A DNA stretch of 64,000 nucleotides, from sequence record PQ613263. One strand, given 5' to 3'. The notes under the pieces are model-generated. The model was not told the origin of the DNA. It saw nothing but the letters and a program-made list of their open reading frames with translations, and made no database searches. This document shows positions 52,995 to 60,719 of the stretch, piece by piece; the first letter of the stretch is position 1, and each line of letters opens with the position of its first letter. The translations under genes and the position numbers were made by a program. The stretch comes from Shigella phage Moonfish.

Positions 52995-53222
52995 TTAACT
53001 TAATGCATAATCCGTTTCAAGAATGTCCTGCCAGAGGCTGTCATCCAGCTTACCCGCAGAGAACTCTTGTCCCAGTACCTGAGATAGGATGAAGCCCAGC
53101 AAGTCACTCTTAGCAATGTCAGATAGAATCTGATTGTACTGACGACGTAGGTCATTACCATAGTTAGGATGACAACGAAAACCATTAGTTAAACGAGTCG
53201 TTAGCTCGCCCTTACCTTCCAT
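52995..53222 (-). CDS. RNA polymerase II large subunit, C-terminal segment (downstream exon or fragment)
   Basis: Ends WQDILETDYALS, resembling the T7 RNAP C-terminus LRDILESDFAFA; overlaps the HNH ORF stop. Confidence 0.5.
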   Translation of the reverse strand: MEGKGELTTRLTNGFRCHPNYGNDLRRQYNQILSDIAKSDLLGFILSQVLGQEFSAGKLDDSLWQDILETDYALS

Positions 53223-53856
53223 GATTAACATGAAAGCCATATGTAGCATCTGCTTGTTTACGAGCAAGCATTGCCTCCTCAAGTGTGTCGTACGTACCCA
53301 GACCGATCTGTTTGCGATTGACTGTGATGTGTGCCTGAAATCTACCAGAAGGCAGTATTCTCACACCGTTCACTTTGCTTGAAGTATTACTAGATAAACT
53401 CATATTCATCTGGTTCTGTCTGCTGGTTACATTTCTCAAATTAGACCAACGATTGTCGTTTCTAGTATGATTGATGTGGTCCACCTGGTTAGGTGTTTCC
53501 CCAGTTTCCATTATCCAGATTATTCGATGTAGTAAGTACTCTTTGCGGCCCAGGCTAACGGATAGATACCCTTCTTTGTGAGGATACCCCACAATTGTTC
53601 CGGCTAACCCACTGGCAGAGTCATAACGATGAGTCACTAGCCCACTATCCCTGTCATACCTTAAAACCTTCTGCAAAGATTCTTGGGTAATATTACCCAA
53701 GTTTATTATTAGGTTTTTACAGGTAGAGCATAGATGACCTATTGGACTCTTTCTAGCATCATAGAAGTTACAAACAAACTCATTAGAGCATTGCTTGCAA
53801 CTACAGATAGCTGTGTACTTACCAGTTTTACGTAATATTTGAGAGTTATCTAACAT
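53212..53856 (-). CDS. HNH-AP2 homing endonuclease inserted in the RNA polymerase II large-subunit gene
   Basis: HNH motif HRIIWIMETGETPNQVDHINHTRNDNRWSNL plus AP2-like NGVRILPSGRFQAHITVNRKQIGLGTYDTLEEA; own RBS. Confidence 0.6.
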   Translation of the reverse strand: MLDNSQILRKTGKYTAICSCKQCSNEFVCNFYDARKSPIGHLCSTCKNLIINLGNITQESLQKVLRYDRDSGLVTHRYDSASGLAGTIVGYPHKEGYLSVSLGRKEYLLHRIIWIMETGETPNQVDHINHTRNDNRWSNLRNVTSRQNQMNMSLSSNTSSKVNGVRILPSGRFQAHITVNRKQIGLGTYDTLEEAMLARKQADATYGFHVNHGR

Positions 53857-54148
53857 ATGGATTCCTTAGTAATTTTGCATACAATTTCAGATTGTATCCT
53901 AACCAAGGAAGTAAGTCTCCAATTTTCACTGGAGTATCGGACTATATCATCACCCACTAATCAGTGGGGCAAGGCGCTTGGGTGGTCACTTGACTCACCT
54001 ACTCTACTCACATACGAAATGCTTTCGATAGTCTCTGAACCTTCCCTCATAGAGGGCTTGGCTGCTGATTGGCATATCCATAGGACTTAGCTTTCCAGCA
54101 ATTCACCTTGTTTTCGACACGGATTACTCCGTGAAGGATCATTTATGT

Positions 54149-55180
54149 TTAATCATGTACAGTCAATACAGGGAATGGCTTCTTAGGTAAAGTGTCCAGC
54201 ATGTCTGCTACTACCTGACGGTCAACCATAGCAATAGTGCCTGGGTCGAGATAGTCGATAATAGACATAGATAAGAATCCAGACTTCTCGTAGTGTTCCC
54301 ACAAGGTCTGTACCATTTCCATGTTACCTTCAATCTCCCCATACTCTGCTGGGCCTGTGTCGCAGAGTTCACGAACAGCAGCAACCAGGTTAGCATCGAA
54401 GTTACAACGACGCAGCATCTCGCGTACCACCATCCCATCAATAGAGTGGGTGATGTTAGCAGAGAGCATACGAGTCTTCTCTTCAGTACCCTGAACCATG
54501 CGGGTAATGTCGAATGGTTTACCTAAGAAGTTAACAGTCTGTACTTCTGGAACCATGACCTTAATGACGGCATGGAAGTTGTCAGACAATACCCATACGT
54601 AACGGTTAGCATCCGGGTTACCACATTGCAGTAAGAACTTGTTCAATGCCCAAGGCCCACTAGCAACAGTTTCCATTACATTCTCAAAAGTCTTGAGACG
54701 GATACCCTCACCGAATACTTCTTTAGGCTTAGCTTCTGAACCGTAGAATGCAGTCATAACTGCCTGCTTAGTGTCACTACGCTTAATACGAGATGCTTCA
54801 CCAAGGATGTCCAACATCTTGTGATAGATAACTGTATAAGCATCACGACGTAATGGCTTACCGTTTTCACCCATGTAGTTAACTACGTTACACAGTTCAG
54901 CAGCAGAACGGTCACCAGTCAGGCAAGCCAGTAACTGCAAGCCTGATGATGTAGCATCCAGAGCTACGGCATAGCCAATAGGCTTACCGGCTTTCATATC
55001 TTTCCATGCGTTTACACCTGCATAGAACAATGCGGATTCTTCAGCTTCATCTACCAGATTAAGCAGGTTAGCTTCGTTTTCATCGAACCAGCTAATACGT
55101 TCATCCCATGTTTTCTTATCCAGACCCATGTTATTCGCAATATCAATCTTTAAATATTCTTTCGCTGTGAAAAGCTGCAT
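54149..55180 (-). CDS. T7-like single-subunit RNA polymerase, N4 RNAP II large subunit (gp16-like), N-terminal segment ending at motif C
   Basis: Motif A ALDATSSGLQ (T7 DGSCSGIQ), motif B RSDTKQAVMTAFYGSE (T7 RSVTKRSVMTLAYGSK); ORF stops right after VHD (T7 motif C IHDSFG). Confidence 0.7.
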   Translation of the reverse strand: MQLFTAKEYLKIDIANNMGLDKKTWDERISWFDENEANLLNLVDEAEESALFYAGVNAWKDMKAGKPIGYAVALDATSSGLQLLACLTGDRSAAELCNVVNYMGENGKPLRRDAYTVIYHKMLDILGEASRIKRSDTKQAVMTAFYGSEAKPKEVFGEGIRLKTFENVMETVASGPWALNKFLLQCGNPDANRYVWVLSDNFHAVIKVMVPEVQTVNFLGKPFDITRMVQGTEEKTRMLSANITHSIDGMVVREMLRRCNFDANLVAAVRELCDTGPAEYGEIEGNMEMVQTLWEHYEKSGFLSMSIIDYLDPGTIAMVDRQVVADMLDTLPKKPFPVLTVHD

Positions 55181-55181
55181 C

Positions 55182-55763
55182 TTAAGCTCCTAGTTTCCAC
55201 GTATAGCCATATGCTTGTGCATATGTACCAATAATTGATTGTTTAATGTTTGATGGTATTCCATTTACACTGCGTGCTGCTGCACTCAGTGAATGGAATG
55301 TCTGGATGTAAATACCATCCAGTGTGTATTGCTCTACAGGGATAGCAGATTTGGTATTAATACCGTTGATTGCATCAGAGTAATACCTTCTTACATTGGC
55401 GTTTACCGTAACAACACGAATGTTATCCAGTGAGTAACCTTTATAGTCATCCAGCCTGTCAAGGCTTGGCTTCAGGTTGGTTGGGTAATCCTCTATTACC
55501 CATTTATCATACAGAGTGTGAAACTCTTTCTTTGATAACACCCATTGTTCTAGTTCCTCTTTAGTAAAAGTAACAGGATTAAACCCTTTCTTCTTGGTTC
55601 TGCTTACGCAACCGGAGTACATTTGATTAATGACTCCTTGTTTGGAATGGATAAAACGTTTCACACAGTCTTTACAGTCTGCTCTTACACCCTGTTTACC
55701 TGTGGACTGTTTATTGAACATGTCCAGAGGCAAGTTCTGCTTACATACTGAACATGTCTTCAT
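55182..55763 (-). CDS. Putative homing-endonuclease-like DNA-binding protein (Cys-rich N-terminus, NUMOD-like HTH C-terminus)
   Basis: CSVCKQ...CKDC at N-terminus; C-terminal FHSLSAAARSVNGIPSNIKQSIIG...GYTWK; stop/start within 1-3 nt of both neighbours. Confidence 0.35.
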   Translation of the reverse strand: MKTCSVCKQNLPLDMFNKQSTGKQGVRADCKDCVKRFIHSKQGVINQMYSGCVSRTKKKGFNPVTFTKEELEQWVLSKKEFHTLYDKWVIEDYPTNLKPSLDRLDDYKGYSLDNIRVVTVNANVRRYYSDAINGINTKSAIPVEQYTLDGIYIQTFHSLSAAARSVNGIPSNIKQSIIGTYAQAYGYTWKLGA

Positions 55764-55764
55764 A

Positions 55765-56583
55765 TTAATCCTCGTTTACTAACTCTTTATCTGCGAACTC
55801 TATAACTGCCTTATTGTAAGAGGTTCCCGCATAGTTAATATGGTATCCACATGCATATGTTCTTCCCCTCTTATCAAATTTATGTGCTAGTGAGAAGTTA
55901 TTACCTTCTTTGGTCACTAACTCCATTACTTCCTTAGCTGTACGGCTGTACTTCTCAAAGGCTTTAACTCGTTTCTCATAGTCCTGACGGGTTTCACCCT
56001 CTTTGGGTTTATCCATGTTAGGACGAGAGTCTTTTACATAGTTGGCAACGTCCCAGTTAATACAGAGTCGTTGGTTGTTCATACGGTTAATGTGGTCAAG
56101 GCAGACGTCCATCTCATGATGGTTCTTCTTGAGGATGATTGAGCCTTTAGATTCATAGTAGCCAGTGTCCCGATTAGTCAGGACTGGCTTAGGCTTACTG
56201 ACGATAGGTAATGGATACTGGAATGCCTCCAGTTCCATCTGAACATCTTCACTAATCTCATAAATAACACCGAACTTGTCGATGGTAGGGTCATAGTTGA
56301 AGCAGTCATTCTCTGCCATCTTATACAGACAGTCAGCGATATACTGAGCGTCATCTGAGTGACTCATGAGAGAGCCAATCATAGTCTGAATGTCAGCACG
56401 TTTATGTAGGGCAATCTGCACCATTGCATCAATGAGCAGCTTATAATCAATTTCTAAATAGGCGGCGAATGCCTTAAAGTCAATTTCTTTGGAGTCCTCA
56501 AATTCCTTCCTCATGCGAGGGAGTAATTGGTTTTTGTTGAAAAGGATTTCAAGTTGCTTCTGATGTTCAATAGATGAGTACAT
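55765..56583 (-). CDS. RNA polymerase II small subunit (N4 gp15-like)
   Basis: 272-aa ORF immediately upstream of the large subunit; sizes match the N4 two-subunit RNAP II. Confidence 0.45.
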   Translation of the reverse strand: MYSSIEHQKQLEILFNKNQLLPRMRKEFEDSKEIDFKAFAAYLEIDYKLLIDAMVQIALHKRADIQTMIGSLMSHSDDAQYIADCLYKMAENDCFNYDPTIDKFGVIYEISEDVQMELEAFQYPLPIVSKPKPVLTNRDTGYYESKGSIILKKNHHEMDVCLDHINRMNNQRLCINWDVANYVKDSRPNMDKPKEGETRQDYEKRVKAFEKYSRTAKEVMELVTKEGNNFSLAHKFDKRGRTYACGYHINYAGTSYNKAVIEFADKELVNED

Positions 56584-56616: not shown

Positions 56617-56631
56617 AGCTGCGGAGCAGCT
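56617..56631 (-). promoter_or_regulatory. Hairpin promoter candidate (N4 vRNAP-type), core agctGCGGAGCagct
   Basis: 6-bp stem, 3-nt GGA loop; 35 nt upstream of the RNAP II small-subunit start; identical core at three other sites. Confidence 0.55.
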
Positions 56632-56636
56632 ATTAC

Positions 56637-57017
56637 CTAAAAGGTTCCCCAGTAGATATAGTCATCTCCCAGGATAGGTTTCCAGGCTTCGTCAAACATG
56701 ACGTTGCCTGTAGCATTTGCAAACATAGGGGCAATGTCCTTGTCTTCATAACCAGCCAGTCCACAACCAATGCGTGTTACTTTAAAGTCCCACTCTGGGT
56801 GTGCTGCTGCATACAGGATGAATGCTGCTACAAATTTCTCAATATCCTCTAAGGACATAGTCTTGATTGACTGGTTTTTGGTTGGGATTGCATAGCTGCA
56901 ACCATAATGGCCTACGCCCATACCCCAACGAGCACCGTGCTTCTTATATGCAACTTTCGCTGCACCAGCACCGTGACGGCCTGCTAAATTACTACCGAAT
57001 ACTAATATCTCTTTCAT
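56637..57017 (-). CDS. Hypothetical protein (Gly-rich nucleotide-binding-like motifs)
   Basis: 126 aa; VFGSNLAGRHGAGAAK and IGCGLAG. Confidence 0.3.
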   Translation of the reverse strand: MKEILVFGSNLAGRHGAGAAKVAYKKHGARWGMGVGHYGCSYAIPTKNQSIKTMSLEDIEKFVAAFILYAAAHPEWDFKVTRIGCGLAGYEDKDIAPMFANATGNVMFDEAWKPILGDDYIYWGTF

Positions 57018-57021
57018 GCTA

Positions 57022-57342
57022 TTAATCCTTTGGTTTAAGAACTTGGAATGCGAACACAGGACGTTTACTACGCCACTGGTTCATAGCTAGTTCACTAGCA
57101 GGAGAGCCATCATGTAAGTCATATATGAATGTAATCATATACTCTGGTTCCTCTGGGAAGTTCTCTGTAGAGAACGGTAGACCTGCTTCTTTTAATACAG
57201 GAACCAGTGGTGATTCAGCTGCACAATAAATAATGAACTTTTCGCTGAATGCTTTACTGGTCTGAGATACGTAATCAATATTACGCATCATCTTATCGAC
57301 ATCAGTAAATGTATTATCATGTACTACTACGATGTTATTCAC
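57022..57342 (-). CDS. Hypothetical protein
   Basis: 106-aa ORF. Confidence 0.3.
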   Translation of the reverse strand: MNNIVVVHDNTFTDVDKMMRNIDYVSQTSKAFSEKFIIYCAAESPLVPVLKEAGLPFSTENFPEEPEYMITFIYDLHDGSPASELAMNQWRSKRPVFAFQVLKPKD

Positions 57343-57596
57343 TCTACTTTCTCCAGGGTTAGATATACTGTATTCATTTGAGGCACATAATCACAAAAAC
57401 CAATTTCCTCTTGTCTGCCACTAGACTTCCAAATACAGTTTTCAGTTAGTTTAGGCTTTCTACTAAATCCAATTAGTGAGGCATTCTTACTCTTCTGAGG
57501 ACGAGGTAATAAGGCTACATATTTAACCCATAATGGGACTTCAATAGTTTGTCCCATATAGTTAAATGATTTAGTTACAGGGAATGTAATAATCAC
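57339..57596 (-). CDS. Hypothetical protein
   Basis: 85-aa ORF. Confidence 0.3.
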   Translation of the reverse strand: MIITFPVTKSFNYMGQTIEVPLWVKYVALLPRPQKSKNASLIGFSRKPKLTENCIWKSSGRQEEIGFCDYVPQMNTVYLTLEKVE

Positions 57597-57956
57597 TTAG
57601 TACCTCACCACTATTACTTTCTTATTATTTAACCGAGTCATGATATCAATCATGTGTTTGGTTCCTTTTGACTTACCATCCCAGAATGCTACAAGAGTAT
57701 CTGCGAAATTAGCCATTTCAGTATTACGTACATAACCTGCACGCTTACCTAATCTGTCCCAGTCAGCAGGAAATTCATGTATTATCATCCCTGCCTCTTT
57801 CCAGAGATTATATGCTGTAATGTCTGCTCCTCTAGCCATACCACATACAAGTTCAGGTGAATCAGTTATTTCACCAGATTCTACTAGCTTCTGTAATTCA
57901 GCAATCATGCGATTAGTGTCAATGAAGTCACGTCCACCAGCTACAATTAGTCTCAT
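57597..57956 (-). CDS. SLOG-family protein (DUF2493/YspA-like)
   Basis: Motifs IVAGGRDF, CGMARGADI, FPADWDRLGKRAGYVRN, VAFWDGKSKGT. Confidence 0.5.
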   Translation of the reverse strand: MRLIVAGGRDFIDTNRMIAELQKLVESGEITDSPELVCGMARGADITAYNLWKEAGMIIHEFPADWDRLGKRAGYVRNTEMANFADTLVAFWDGKSKGTKHMIDIMTRLNNKKVIVVRY

Positions 57957-58174
57957 TTCTGATACCCCTGAATATAGTTAATACGGCGAATACGTTGAGT
58001 AGATGCCTTAACAGCCATCTGATGATTTTCTTCTTTGTGCTGATTTTCCAGCACCTTAGCCCATTCTTCCTGGTTCCGTTGTTTCTGTAATATACGACTA
58101 CAACGTTTATGATTGGCAACTCCACGTCCTTTCTTACAGACTGGGCATATACCATAATCGTTTGAGTACATCAT
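57953..58174 (-). CDS. Small zinc-ribbon protein
   Basis: 73 aa with CPVCKK...HKRC. Confidence 0.3.
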   Translation of the reverse strand: MMYSNDYGICPVCKKGRGVANHKRCSRILQKQRNQEEWAKVLENQHKEENHQMAVKASTQRIRRINYIQGYQK

Positions 58175-58479
58175 TGGCTTAAAGCCTCCATTAATATTTT
58201 ACGAATAACGTTAACATCAGATTCAGTACCAATTAAACCAACAGGTTTCTTTGTACTATCTGTGACAAAGGATGCAATCCTTTCCATCTCTGCTGTAATT
58301 AATTTGTCACCACTAATAAGACGATTACGAAGGTAAGCCTCATAAGCTACCTCTATATCTTCTACTGTGGTTCTTTCATTACGAGTGAATGGATTACTTA
58401 ATGGGAAGGGTAAATGTACCCGTATATTCCTGTCAGCTACCTTAGCTAAGTGAGGGAGTATACATACTATTTCATTCAA
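58171..58479 (-). CDS. Hypothetical protein
   Basis: 102-aa ORF. Confidence 0.3.
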   Translation of the reverse strand: MNEIVCILPHLAKVADRNIRVHLPFPLSNPFTRNERTTVEDIEVAYEAYLRNRLISGDKLITAEMERIASFVTDSTKKPVGLIGTESDVNVIRKILMEALSQ

Positions 58480-58520: not shown

Positions 58521-58557
58521 AATAAAAAATAGGAGCCTCCTATTGGAGGACTCCTTA
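58521..58557 (-). terminator. Rho-independent terminator
   Basis: Hairpin aggagcctcc-tatt-ggaggactcct with A-run on +. Confidence 0.45.
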
Positions 58558-59139: not shown

Positions 59140-59168
59140 AAAATAAAAGGACTCCCCGAAGGGAGTCC
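59140..59168 (-). terminator. Rho-independent terminator
   Basis: Hairpin ggactccc-cgaa-gggagtcc with preceding A-run on +. Confidence 0.55.
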
Positions 59169-59177
59169 AGTTGTTGA

Positions 59178-59564
59178 TTAGAAAGTCAGTTTACGAGCAT
59201 ATTTATTCTCATCGGCAGGAATAGATTCTTCCTGAGCCTTCACGCGTCTTAACTGAACTTGCAGGTTAATGATACCTTCTTCACCTGGTTCCAGGTTCTG
59301 AGCATATTCGATTAACTGTTCCAGCAAATCGTTCTGTGCACAACGCATAGCACGGAAGTCAGCATTGCTGCTATTAGTAGGCAGTGCTTCCTGAGTATCC
59401 AGTGGAATACCAGTAGGCAGAGAGATGAATTTCTCATCATCAGAGCCTTCATTAGCAACATAACCAATGTTCAGCCAGAACTGAGCCTTAGGCTTAGCAG
59501 CTTTAGTTTCAGCAGTGGTAGCAGCAACGTTAGATTGACCGAAAGTGAATTTTTGAATAGACAT
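59178..59564 (-). CDS. Early protein, unknown function (start at internal ATG with GGAGAG RBS)
   Basis: Track ORF 59178..59663; the ATG at about 59564 has an RBS; first gene downstream of a hairpin promoter. Confidence 0.35.
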
Positions 59565-59674
59565 TTTGTACTCTCCAGATAAATGATTGTTTGATTGATG
59601 GGTTTGTCTGTCGGTGACTAAACCCAAGAAAAGACTTAGGATTTCAATGATTAGTGGATGCATTTACGTCCTCA

Positions 59675-60361: not shown

Positions 60362-60388
60362 TAAAAGGAGACTCCGAAGAGCCTCCAT
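60362..60388 (-). terminator. Weak terminator-like hairpin
   Basis: Imperfect hairpin ggagactc-cgaa-gagcctcc with A-run on +. Confidence 0.3.
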
Positions 60389-60398
60389 ATTTGATTTA

Positions 60399-60719
60399 CT
60401 ATTTAGTCAGGATGTCGATTACTTTTGAATATTCTGCGTTATAGATACGAGCGTTCTCTGAATCTTTGCAGAATTCTTCGATACTTTTCTTACGCATAGT
60501 CTCGTTCATAGCTGTTTCTTCAGCTAATTTGTTTACGAATGTATGCATTTCTAATTTAGTACGGATGGCTTGTTTCTCTGCCATAGTAGATACATATGAA
60601 TTAAGCATACCTACTGCTTTAGTAGCTGTGCCGAATGTATCTGCAACAGTAGTAGCAGCTGAGTTAACAGTACCCAGTAAAGTTCCTGCGGTCATACGTA
60701 CAGTAGCGGTAGTAGTCAT
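60399..60719 (-). CDS. Hypothetical early protein (coiled-coil)
   Basis: 106-aa ORF 43 nt downstream of a hairpin promoter. Confidence 0.3.
   Translation of the reverse strand: MTTTATVRMTAGTLLGTVNSAATTVADTFGTATKAVGMLNSYVSTMAEKQAIRTKLEMHTFVNKLAEETAMNETMRKKSIEEFCKDSENARIYNAEYSKVIDILTK

Follow-up and report, generated by a model that had tools for sequence, protein, structure and literature searches.

A diverged macrodomain and a SLOG-fold protein as a candidate ADP-ribose-processing gene pair of the N4-like Shigella phage Moonfish

Two small genes of Shigella phage Moonfish (sequence record PQ613263), here called ORF-S and ORF-M (ORF, open reading frame), are encoded on the minus strand, in the region that is homologous to the left end of phage N4, and on balance we think it probable that they constitute an early counter-defence cassette of this N4-like phage that processes ADP-ribose (ADPr), the adduct most likely being ADP-ribosylated nucleic acid. 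ORF-S is predicted to be a SLOG-fold protein and ORF-M a macrodomain that has diverged beyond ready recognition. The stretch of DNA analysed is 64,000 nucleotides long and is referred to as the window; positions are those of the window unless another locus is named. Both genes had been flagged in an initial annotation made from the sequence alone; they are present on the minus strand at the positions it gave, and every motif quoted there is found in their translations.

57597..57956, minus strand: ORF-S, 119 aa, ATG start; predicted stand-alone YAcAr (formerly DUF2493) SLOG-fold protein
56637..57017, minus strand: ORF-M, 126 aa, ATG start; predicted diverged macrodomain, homologue of N4 gp14 (NCBIfam A1S_2505 family)

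ORF-M, a predicted macrodomain

ORF-M matches the NCBIfam model NF049995 ('A1S_2505 family phage non-structural protein') over its full length (158.1 bits, cutoff 45, E 7e-47) and falls in phrog_2072 (E 1.4e-58). It is the homologue of N4 gp14, with 73 % identity, the same length and the same position directly upstream of the RNA polymerase (RNAP) II genes. Searches with ORF-M of Pfam, PADLOC and, directly, PDB sequences gave nothing significant, and matches to 5-formyltetrahydrofolate (5-FTHF) cyclo-ligase (E 0.062), purple acid phosphatase and Asp-tRNA ligase were judged to be noise.

The fold of ORF-M has the mixed beta-sheet sandwiched by helices of a macrodomain. Its best structural matches are DarG and TARG1, Poa1p is among the top ones, and BT1257 and SCO6735 are further structural neighbours. 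A 39-sequence ORF-M profile picks out several distinct macrodomains among PDB sequences, each at only E 0.5-0.7, and a weak phmmer alignment of ORF-M with human TARG1 (OARD1, C6orf130) pairs RHGAG with RMGAG, PTK with ITK, and RIGCGLA with RIGCGLD. In such alignments, individually weak, G16-A17-G18 falls on the GAG loop of TARG1 and G84-C85-G86-L87 on its GCGL, and the same pairing of loops is recovered when HHalign is run against a profile of phage T4 AdfM. ORF-M is thus predicted, from its modelled fold, to be a compact macrodomain in the same structural class as TARG1, DarG and Poa1p, and its two glycine motifs, FGSNLAGRHGAGAAK and IGCGLAG, are putative ADPr-binding loops that carry no Rossmann or P-loop signature. 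The initial annotation had taken these motifs as a sign of another nucleotide-binding fold. The predicted ligand is indeed of a nucleotide-derived class, but the glycine motifs are those of macrodomain ADPr loops and the predicted structure of ORF-M is unrelated to SLOG or Rossmann-like folds, the outcome that the initial annotation had itself named as refuting its view.

The positions most conserved in the family, scored on one representative of each of 150 clusters at 50 % identity, are as follows.

F7-G8-S9-N10, G13, H15, G18, A20: 99-100 %
G16, A19: 94-95 %
P45-T46: 99 %
K47: 90 %
G84 / C85 / G86 / L87 / A88 / G89: 99 / 88 / 97 / 83 / 95 / 95 %

In local alignments (E ~1), K47 aligns with the first lysine of the TARG1 ITKK motif, which we take to be the catalytic Lys84 at the end of the central strand; the aspartate of the TARG1 GCGLD motif is presumably Asp125. 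The family appears in part to resemble the lysine-dependent TARG1/DarG class, with the invariant Asn10 and His15 as features of its own, and the pattern of conservation suggests that ORF-M would work as an enzyme and is not a binding module in decay.

The nearest phage counterpart with known biology is the T4 protein Tk.4/AdfM, a DarG-like macrodomain that is needed for resistance to DarTG2 according to genetic evidence (bioRxiv 10.1101/2025.11.20.689424). Like ORF-M, AdfM is a small stand-alone phage macrodomain, and its PDB sequence neighbours (BT1257, Poa1p, SCO6735, DarG and TARG1) are the structural neighbours of ORF-M. However, ORF-M is ~30 residues shorter, and the AdfM family has, at what by eye is the strand-end position of the ORF-M lysine, the glutamine of an invariant NLYTQ. 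When ORF-M was compared by HHalign with the single AdfM sequence, only the PRIGxG loop was aligned; ORF-M lies outside the AdfM family, with remote homology at the superfamily level only. Identity to DarG and TARG1 is 18-23 %, and unlike DarG, ORF-M is a 126-aa single domain with no C-terminal DarT-binding domain and no cognate toxin gene; PADLOC gave no match for ORF-M or its five upstream neighbours.

ORF-S, a YAcAr protein of the SLOG superfamily

ORF-S scores 36.4 bits with the Pfam YAcAr model PF10686, above its gathering cutoff of 28.2 (E 4.6e-9), over profile positions 1-65 of 66 and matches phrog_289 (E 5.6e-30); PF10686 is also the precomputed assignment of 120 of 120 ORF-S homologues among the matches listed. 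Its motifs are AGGRDF, MARGAD, FPADWDRLGKRAG and VAFWDGKS, and GGRD (following strand 1), CGMAxGAD and WDGxSxGTxH are invariant across 27 orthologues; by eye, these conserved motifs seem to resemble the glycine loops of DprA and LOG proteins. An AlphaFold2 model built from the 27 orthologues consists of alternating strand-helix units and has a pLDDT (predicted local distance difference test score) of 95.2. When the model was compared with the PDB by Foldseek, the top match was ShosA (8zva, E 5.5e-4, TM (template-modelling) score 0.70), and further matches were Helicobacter pylori DprA, the ThsA SLOG domain with 3'-cyclic ADPr (3'cADPR), Cdn1 with cyclic triadenylate (cA3) and the LOG-like proteins TM1055 and TT1887, with Foldseek probabilities of 0.97-1.00 for ShosA, DprA, the ThsA SLOG domain, TM1055 and TT1887. 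On the profile match and the modelled fold, ORF-S is predicted to be a member of the SLOG superfamily with a Rossmannoid three-layer alpha/beta fold, and its initial annotation as a SLOG/DUF2493 protein is upheld.

Like ThsA, LOG, DprA and ShosA, ORF-S has the Rossmannoid SLOG fold (TM 0.55-0.70), with loops rich in glycine following strand 1 and later strands, but it is a minimal 119-aa domain lacking a SIR2 effector, DNA-binding or other modules. Two labels attached to its relatives were rejected as specific assignments: 'GTP-binding domain' (PHROG), since the fold is that of a SLOG protein and no G-x4-G-K-[ST] Walker A motif was seen, and 'DprA' (depositors), since the YAcAr model passes its cutoff and the DprA model does not. 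Matches to MRT4 and ORF2 were judged to be noise. The ORF-S and ORF-M families each have thousands of homologues, and no ligand, activity or biochemistry reported for the YAcAr family was found in the literature.

Association of the two families

Gene fusions provide the firmest connection between the two families. In the 56 long ORF-M family members, YAcAr is the commonest fusion partner (7 proteins), the others being NADAR (4), DprA-like (3), WYL_2 (2), and DUF4326, the Acb2/Tad1 hairpin and DUF488-N3 (1 each). Five of the YAcAr fusions are macro-SLOG and two are SLOG-macro, and this occurrence of both orders argues for repeated independent fusion. Among 80 viral ORF-M loci, YAcAr is found in 7, DUF4326 in 12 and a further SLOG-like gene (not statistically validated) in 12; 25 of the 80 have at least one of the three, which share the strand in every case and lie upstream with a single exception. 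Conversely, 80 YAcAr loci reduce to 46 clusters at 80 % identity; in 6 of these a same-strand macrodomain lies no more than 6 kb away (gp14 type in two, T4-AdfM type in four), and 10 have a macrodomain or DUF4326, including one DUF4326-YAcAr fusion. The ORF-S and ORF-M families thus appear to be linked, albeit loosely.

The ORF-M domain commonly forms part of a longer protein in the 80 bacterial loci examined. It is fused to an ADP-ribosylglycohydrolase (ARH; PF03747), N- or C-terminally, in five and to NrtR in one, with DUF1810 and PAS as partners elsewhere. Its neighbours include NrtR (a Nudix domain plus the NrtR winged-helix DNA-binding domain) in 16 of the 80 loci and a stand-alone ADP-ribosylglycohydrolase in 12, with one or the other in 21. 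This cellular context offers independent and consistent support for ADPr chemistry. The initial annotation had proposed that both proteins may act on host nucleotide signalling, which is compatible with these data but too broad, the evidence pointing specifically to ADPr chemistry; it missed both this theme and the fusions that connect the two families.

We note that in the Bacteroidales loci L174, L178, L213, L219 and L235 a PF03747 domain is followed by a C-terminal gp14-type macrodomain, often beside NrtR-type Nudix regulators, an arrangement that would place two unrelated ADPr-erasing folds in one protein. A domain of ~180 aa that Pfam does not recognize ('AGIGSRxTP...SGxAxGAD...WTPxG...GGTGxAI', here 'SLOG2') was also observed (L014, 8..871; L008, 3739..4695; L180, 4767..5813); its fusion partner is DUF4326 in viral loci and an ORF-M-type macrodomain in a Geobacteraceae genome. 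The further SLOG-like gene beside ORF-M homologues in 12 of the 80 viral loci belongs to this family. The domain is SLOG-like by eye only; phmmer against the PDB found no SLOG protein, and HHalign against YAcAr gave 4.6 % with the C-terminal motif alone aligned.

Distribution and variation of the gp14 family

An exhaustive search places 5,103 representatives at 50 % identity in the ORF-M family. It is present in 458 phage records, of phages of Pseudomonas, Vibrio, Escherichia, Klebsiella, Rhizobium and other hosts, mostly of N4-like genome size and including some jumbo phages, and in many bacterial genomes, especially of Bacteroidales, Burkholderiaceae and Acidobacteriota. In roseophages gp14 is 51 % identical (PMC2784036). 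Depositors mostly label family members 'hypothetical', and a few 'ADP-ribosylglycohydrolase' or 'macro domain-containing protein'. The homologue in the Rhodobacter siphovirus RcKeef (L084, 3001..3369), which has a DprA-like gene ~3 kb upstream on the same strand, is labelled 'ADP-ribosyltransferase', probably wrongly given its membership in a macrodomain family; no ADP-ribosyltransferase (ART) adjoins it.

Closely related phages carry quite different gp14 alleles. Those of PD38 and PhAPEC7 are 88-93 % identical to ORF-M and those of E20, PBM-2 and UE-M3 just 48-49 %, so that the switch occurs within one genus while the surrounding DNA stays 85-90 % identical, and yet ORF-M retains 73 % identity to gp14 of N4, a phage of another genus. 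The whole interval from gp9 to gp15 in the Enquatrovirinae is a combinatorial cassette (window 56637..58479; PBM-2, L001, 3901..4635; N4, L083, 3605..4528). In N4 it contains DUF4326 (gp12), gp13 and gp14 and no YAcAr; in the window a gp9-like protein, YAcAr, gp11 and gp14; and in PBM-2 YAcAr, DUF4326 and gp14. Such mosaicism typifies arms-race loci and not housekeeping genes.

Proposed function and alternatives

Associations of this kind have been described before. The co-occurrence, fusion and early-region placement of phage SLOG (including YAcAr), Macro, NADAR and DUF4326 proteins are reported in passages of surveys by the Aravind group (Iyer, Burroughs, Aravind and colleagues), which proposes there that these sets process ADPr derivatives arising from host immunity and that DUF4326 is rhodanese-phosphatase-like (PMC7824862; PMC9503650). 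Moonfish agrees with the sets described in those passages in its families, in the tendency to fusion or adjacency and in early placement, and differs in having a macrodomain member invisible to Pfam, separate small genes and a DUF4326-like member without the Cys/His motif; N4 gp14 and the A1S_2505 family are not singled out in the passages concerned. Phage NADAR proteins (AdfN) reverse the guanine ADP-ribosylation caused by DarT1 (PMC11825919).

In the scheme that we favour, ORF-M would hold the ADPr moiety by its two conserved glycine loops, and Lys47, together with the invariant Asn10 and His15, would hydrolyse the bond between the distal ribose and an adduct installed by the host. The likeliest such adduct would be ADP-ribosylated nucleic acid as made by DarT2-type toxins, a preference based on the analogy with AdfM and DarG and on DarG and TARG1 as the closest structures. 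ORF-S would act on the same ADPr-derived substrate, either binding it (or single-stranded DNA, ssDNA) or cleaving a ribosyl N-glycosidic bond in the manner of the LOG-type SLOG enzymes.

Several observations weigh against this scheme. ORF-M has no match to Pfam Macro (PF01661) at E <= 0.1, whereas T4 AdfM does match (27.7 bits); its sequence and profile matches to solved macrodomains are singly non-significant (E 0.4-1); and the profile-profile comparison with the AdfM family by HHalign, in which the loops are correctly paired, is marginal (64 %, E 6.4e-5). The position of the aspartate in TARG1 GCGLD is Ala88 in ORF-M, and alanine in 95 % of the family. The pairing with ORF-S is facultative, YAcAr being present in only 7 of the 80 viral ORF-M loci and absent from N4, and in the window two genes of unknown function separate the pair. 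The neighbourhood frequencies have no null model, for which reason the fusions are the stronger evidence. A non-exhaustive check of the 80 bacterial loci showed no recurrent DarT-like neighbour among the top clusters, and the partners of NrtR, ARH and Nudix type, like the fusion to the Acb2/Tad1 hairpin, are no harder to explain by soluble ADPr metabolites or protein adducts than by DNA adducts. The literature yielded no experimental study of N4 gp14.

The main alternative is that the two proteins break down or sequester soluble messengers or toxins derived from ADPr, such as glycocyclic ADPr (gcADPR), histidine-ADPr (His-ADPR) or ADPr-1''-phosphate, and not macromolecular adducts, the SLOG protein binding or cleaving the adenine-ribose bond while the macrodomain processes the distal ribose. 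We regard this as a real contender, if an unlikely one. It is what the Aravind group explicitly predicts in passages of its surveys (PMC9503650; PMC7824862), and it accords with the match of the ORF-S fold to the ThsA SLOG domain with 3'cADPR and to Cdn1 with cA3, with the fusions of the ORF-M domain to the Acb2/Tad1 hairpin and WYL_2, with cellular neighbours of the ADPr-sensing or ADPr-cleaving NrtR/Nudix type and the ARH context, and with the presence of Poa1p, an ADPr-1''-phosphatase, among the top structural matches of ORF-M. On the other hand, the best of those matches, DarG and TARG1, act on macromolecular adducts; T4 AdfM, the sole phage macrodomain of the class with genetic data, counters DNA ADP-ribosylation; and the known anti-Thoeris/CBASS hotspot of N4-like phages (Bes1/Bes2/Acb4-Sequestin in the Pseudomonas phages) is at a different locus from ORF-S and ORF-M. 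Far less can be said for the suggestion that ORF-M is a glycine-rich Rossmann or P-loop protein acting on host (cyclic) nucleotide signalling: glycine-rich motifs are present and PHROG gives the SLOG family a 'GTP-binding domain' label, but the fold result for ORF-M contradicts it, and we consider it exceedingly improbable.

Two further possibilities would take the genes out of the conflict with the host or separate them from each other, and both seem to us very unlikely. The genes might serve the phage's own NAD+ and ADPr housekeeping, either by dealing with by-products of RNA repair and other NAD+ reactions or by reversing or limiting modifications made by a phage-encoded ART. Conservation of gp14 over N4-like phages of very different hosts is what a core function would show, toxin-antitoxin-like pairs of Macro with sirtuin or ART exist in phages, and the N4-ART family is reported to be common in phages in one of the surveys mentioned (PMC9503650); yet no ART adjoins the pair (no ART-directed search of the window was made), and the switching of gp14 alleles and the gain and loss of SLOG and DUF4326 genes form an arms-race pattern. 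Alternatively, ORF-S might be a DprA-like accessory of ssDNA binding or recombination and ORF-M an ADPr-binding protein functionally unrelated to it. DprA and ShosA are indeed among the best structural matches of ORF-S, its orthologues have been deposited as 'DNA processing protein DprA', two small unrelated genes lie between the pair and most ORF-M loci are without YAcAr. Such independence is difficult to reconcile with seven independent-looking fusions of exactly these families in both orders, with the adjacency of YAcAr to the AdfM-type macrodomain family as well and its fusion to DUF4326, and with the fact that ORF-S passes the YAcAr cutoff and not the DprA model.

An extension of the favoured scheme, which we put forward as speculation and think quite unlikely, is that early protection of N4-like phages from ssDNA ADP-ribosylation would be the near-universal task of gp14-type macrodomains, with the YAcAr SLOG protein as a DprA-like partner that recognizes ssDNA or ADPr and targets the eraser or completes its reaction, the two making up an ADPr-DNA repair module that is occasionally fused. 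N4-like phages would be unusually exposed to ssDNA-modifying toxins of DarT type because their early transcription needs extruded ssDNA hairpin promoters and SSB, the protein that binds ssDNA.

Organization of the block and neighbouring genes

The window is that of an N4-like coliphage of the genus Gamaleyavirus (Schitoviridae); it contains an ORF of 3,456 aa, the size of the N4 virion RNA polymerase, and the ~3 kb around the gene pair are 90-93 % identical to phages E20, KKP 3715 and PhAPEC5. Homologues of N4 proteins were placed by tblastn at the following positions.

gp1 homologue: 60408-60719
gp2 homologue: 59181-59663
gp9 homologue: 58177-58479
gp11 homologue: 57028-57342
gp14 homologue (ORF-M): 56640-57017
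gp15 homologue: 55774-56577
gp16 homologue: 54152-55180 and 52998-53180

In N4, gp1, gp2, gp15 and gp16 are early products of the injected virion polymerase (PMC4496689). It is reasonable to infer from their position that ORF-S and ORF-M are expressed early too, because they sit between the gp2 and gp15 early-gene homologues on the same strand. The other features of the block that contains them, all on the minus strand, are listed below.

58536..58549, minus strand: terminator-like hairpin at the upstream edge of the block
58171..58479, minus strand: N4 gp9 homologue, divergent and probably degenerate DUF4326-like protein; heads the block
57953..58174, minus strand: 73-aa Cys-containing protein (phrog_6887), between the gp9-like gene and ORF-S
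57339..57596, minus strand: 85-aa protein (phrog_1972), between ORF-S and the gp11 homologue
57022..57342, minus strand: N4 gp11 homologue (phrog_7827), immediately upstream of ORF-M
56617..56631, minus strand: hairpin resembling a terminator (AGCTGC-TCC-GCAGCT, then TTTGG) that comes directly behind the ORF-M stop codon and ahead of the RNAP II small-subunit gene

The genes of the block are co-directional and tightly packed with 4-bp start/stop overlaps, and an AAGGA resembling a ribosome-binding site precedes the ORF-M start. The gp11 homologue is 69.5 % identical to N4 gp11 (phrog_7827, E 2.5e-56), and phage PBM-2 has, in the corresponding place, an orthologue of the phrog_6887 protein with 86 % identity. 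Terminator-like sites are enriched, a pattern scan giving 11 of them where shuffled sequences have 3.0 +/- 2.2, with no further minus-strand site between 58536 and 56631. GC-rich hairpins with T-rich tails at 59149..59168, 60367..60386, 58536..58549 and 56617..56631 (minus strand) punctuate the early region after the gp1 and gp2 homologues, a gp6-like gene and the gp14 homologue. The one that follows ORF-M, with its 6-bp stem and 3-nt loop, could alternatively be a hairpin promoter of N4 type.

The gp9 homologue is 73 % identical to N4 gp9. It and its PBM-2 orthologue have sub-threshold matches to PF14216 (15.3 and 15.7 bits), and HHalign of the gp9 homologue with DUF4326 proteins gave 95.6 % (E 1.1e-8, three shared sequences excluded). 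The DUF4326 motif CxC...CHGD is replaced, and the protein may be an inactive DUF4326 paralogue; N4 carries gp9 as well as a canonical DUF4326 protein (gp12). The label 'DUF4326 domain-containing protein' found in relatives was rejected for ORF-M, as it belongs to another gene of the same length (in PBM-2) or to N4 gp12.

The RNAP II large-subunit gene (gp16 homologue; 52998..55180, minus strand) is split after '...VLTVHD', with 55180..54152 coding for residues 1-342 and 53180..52998 for residues 344-404. Within the insert of ~970 bp are a group I intron, with its core at 53917..54160 (minus strand; Rfam RF00028, 91 bits, E 2.6e-23), and an ORF (53212..53856, minus strand) for a 214-aa homing endonuclease with HNH_3 and AP2 domains. 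A free-standing endonuclease gene (55182..55763, minus strand; Pfam NUMOD1, phrog_1035 'endonuclease VII' and several HNH-endonuclease PHROGs) lies between the two RNAP II subunit genes, which in N4 are just 47 bp apart.

Implications

Pairing of the kind seen in ORF-S and ORF-M has already been predicted by comparative genomics, and what is new here is the diverged gp14-type member of the macrodomain group. From the first comparisons of N4-like genomes onwards, N4 gp14 has carried the label 'unknown'; it now becomes a candidate eraser of ADP-ribosylation that is directly testable. This reading of gp14 would extend to the Schitoviridae the theme of orphan, antitoxin-like erasers carried by phages, of which AdfN and AdfM are examples, and the fusions offer a way into the study of the YAcAr SLOG family. 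There is also a practical side, since phage therapy draws on N4-like coliphages and Pseudomonas phages, and evasion of host defences affects host range.

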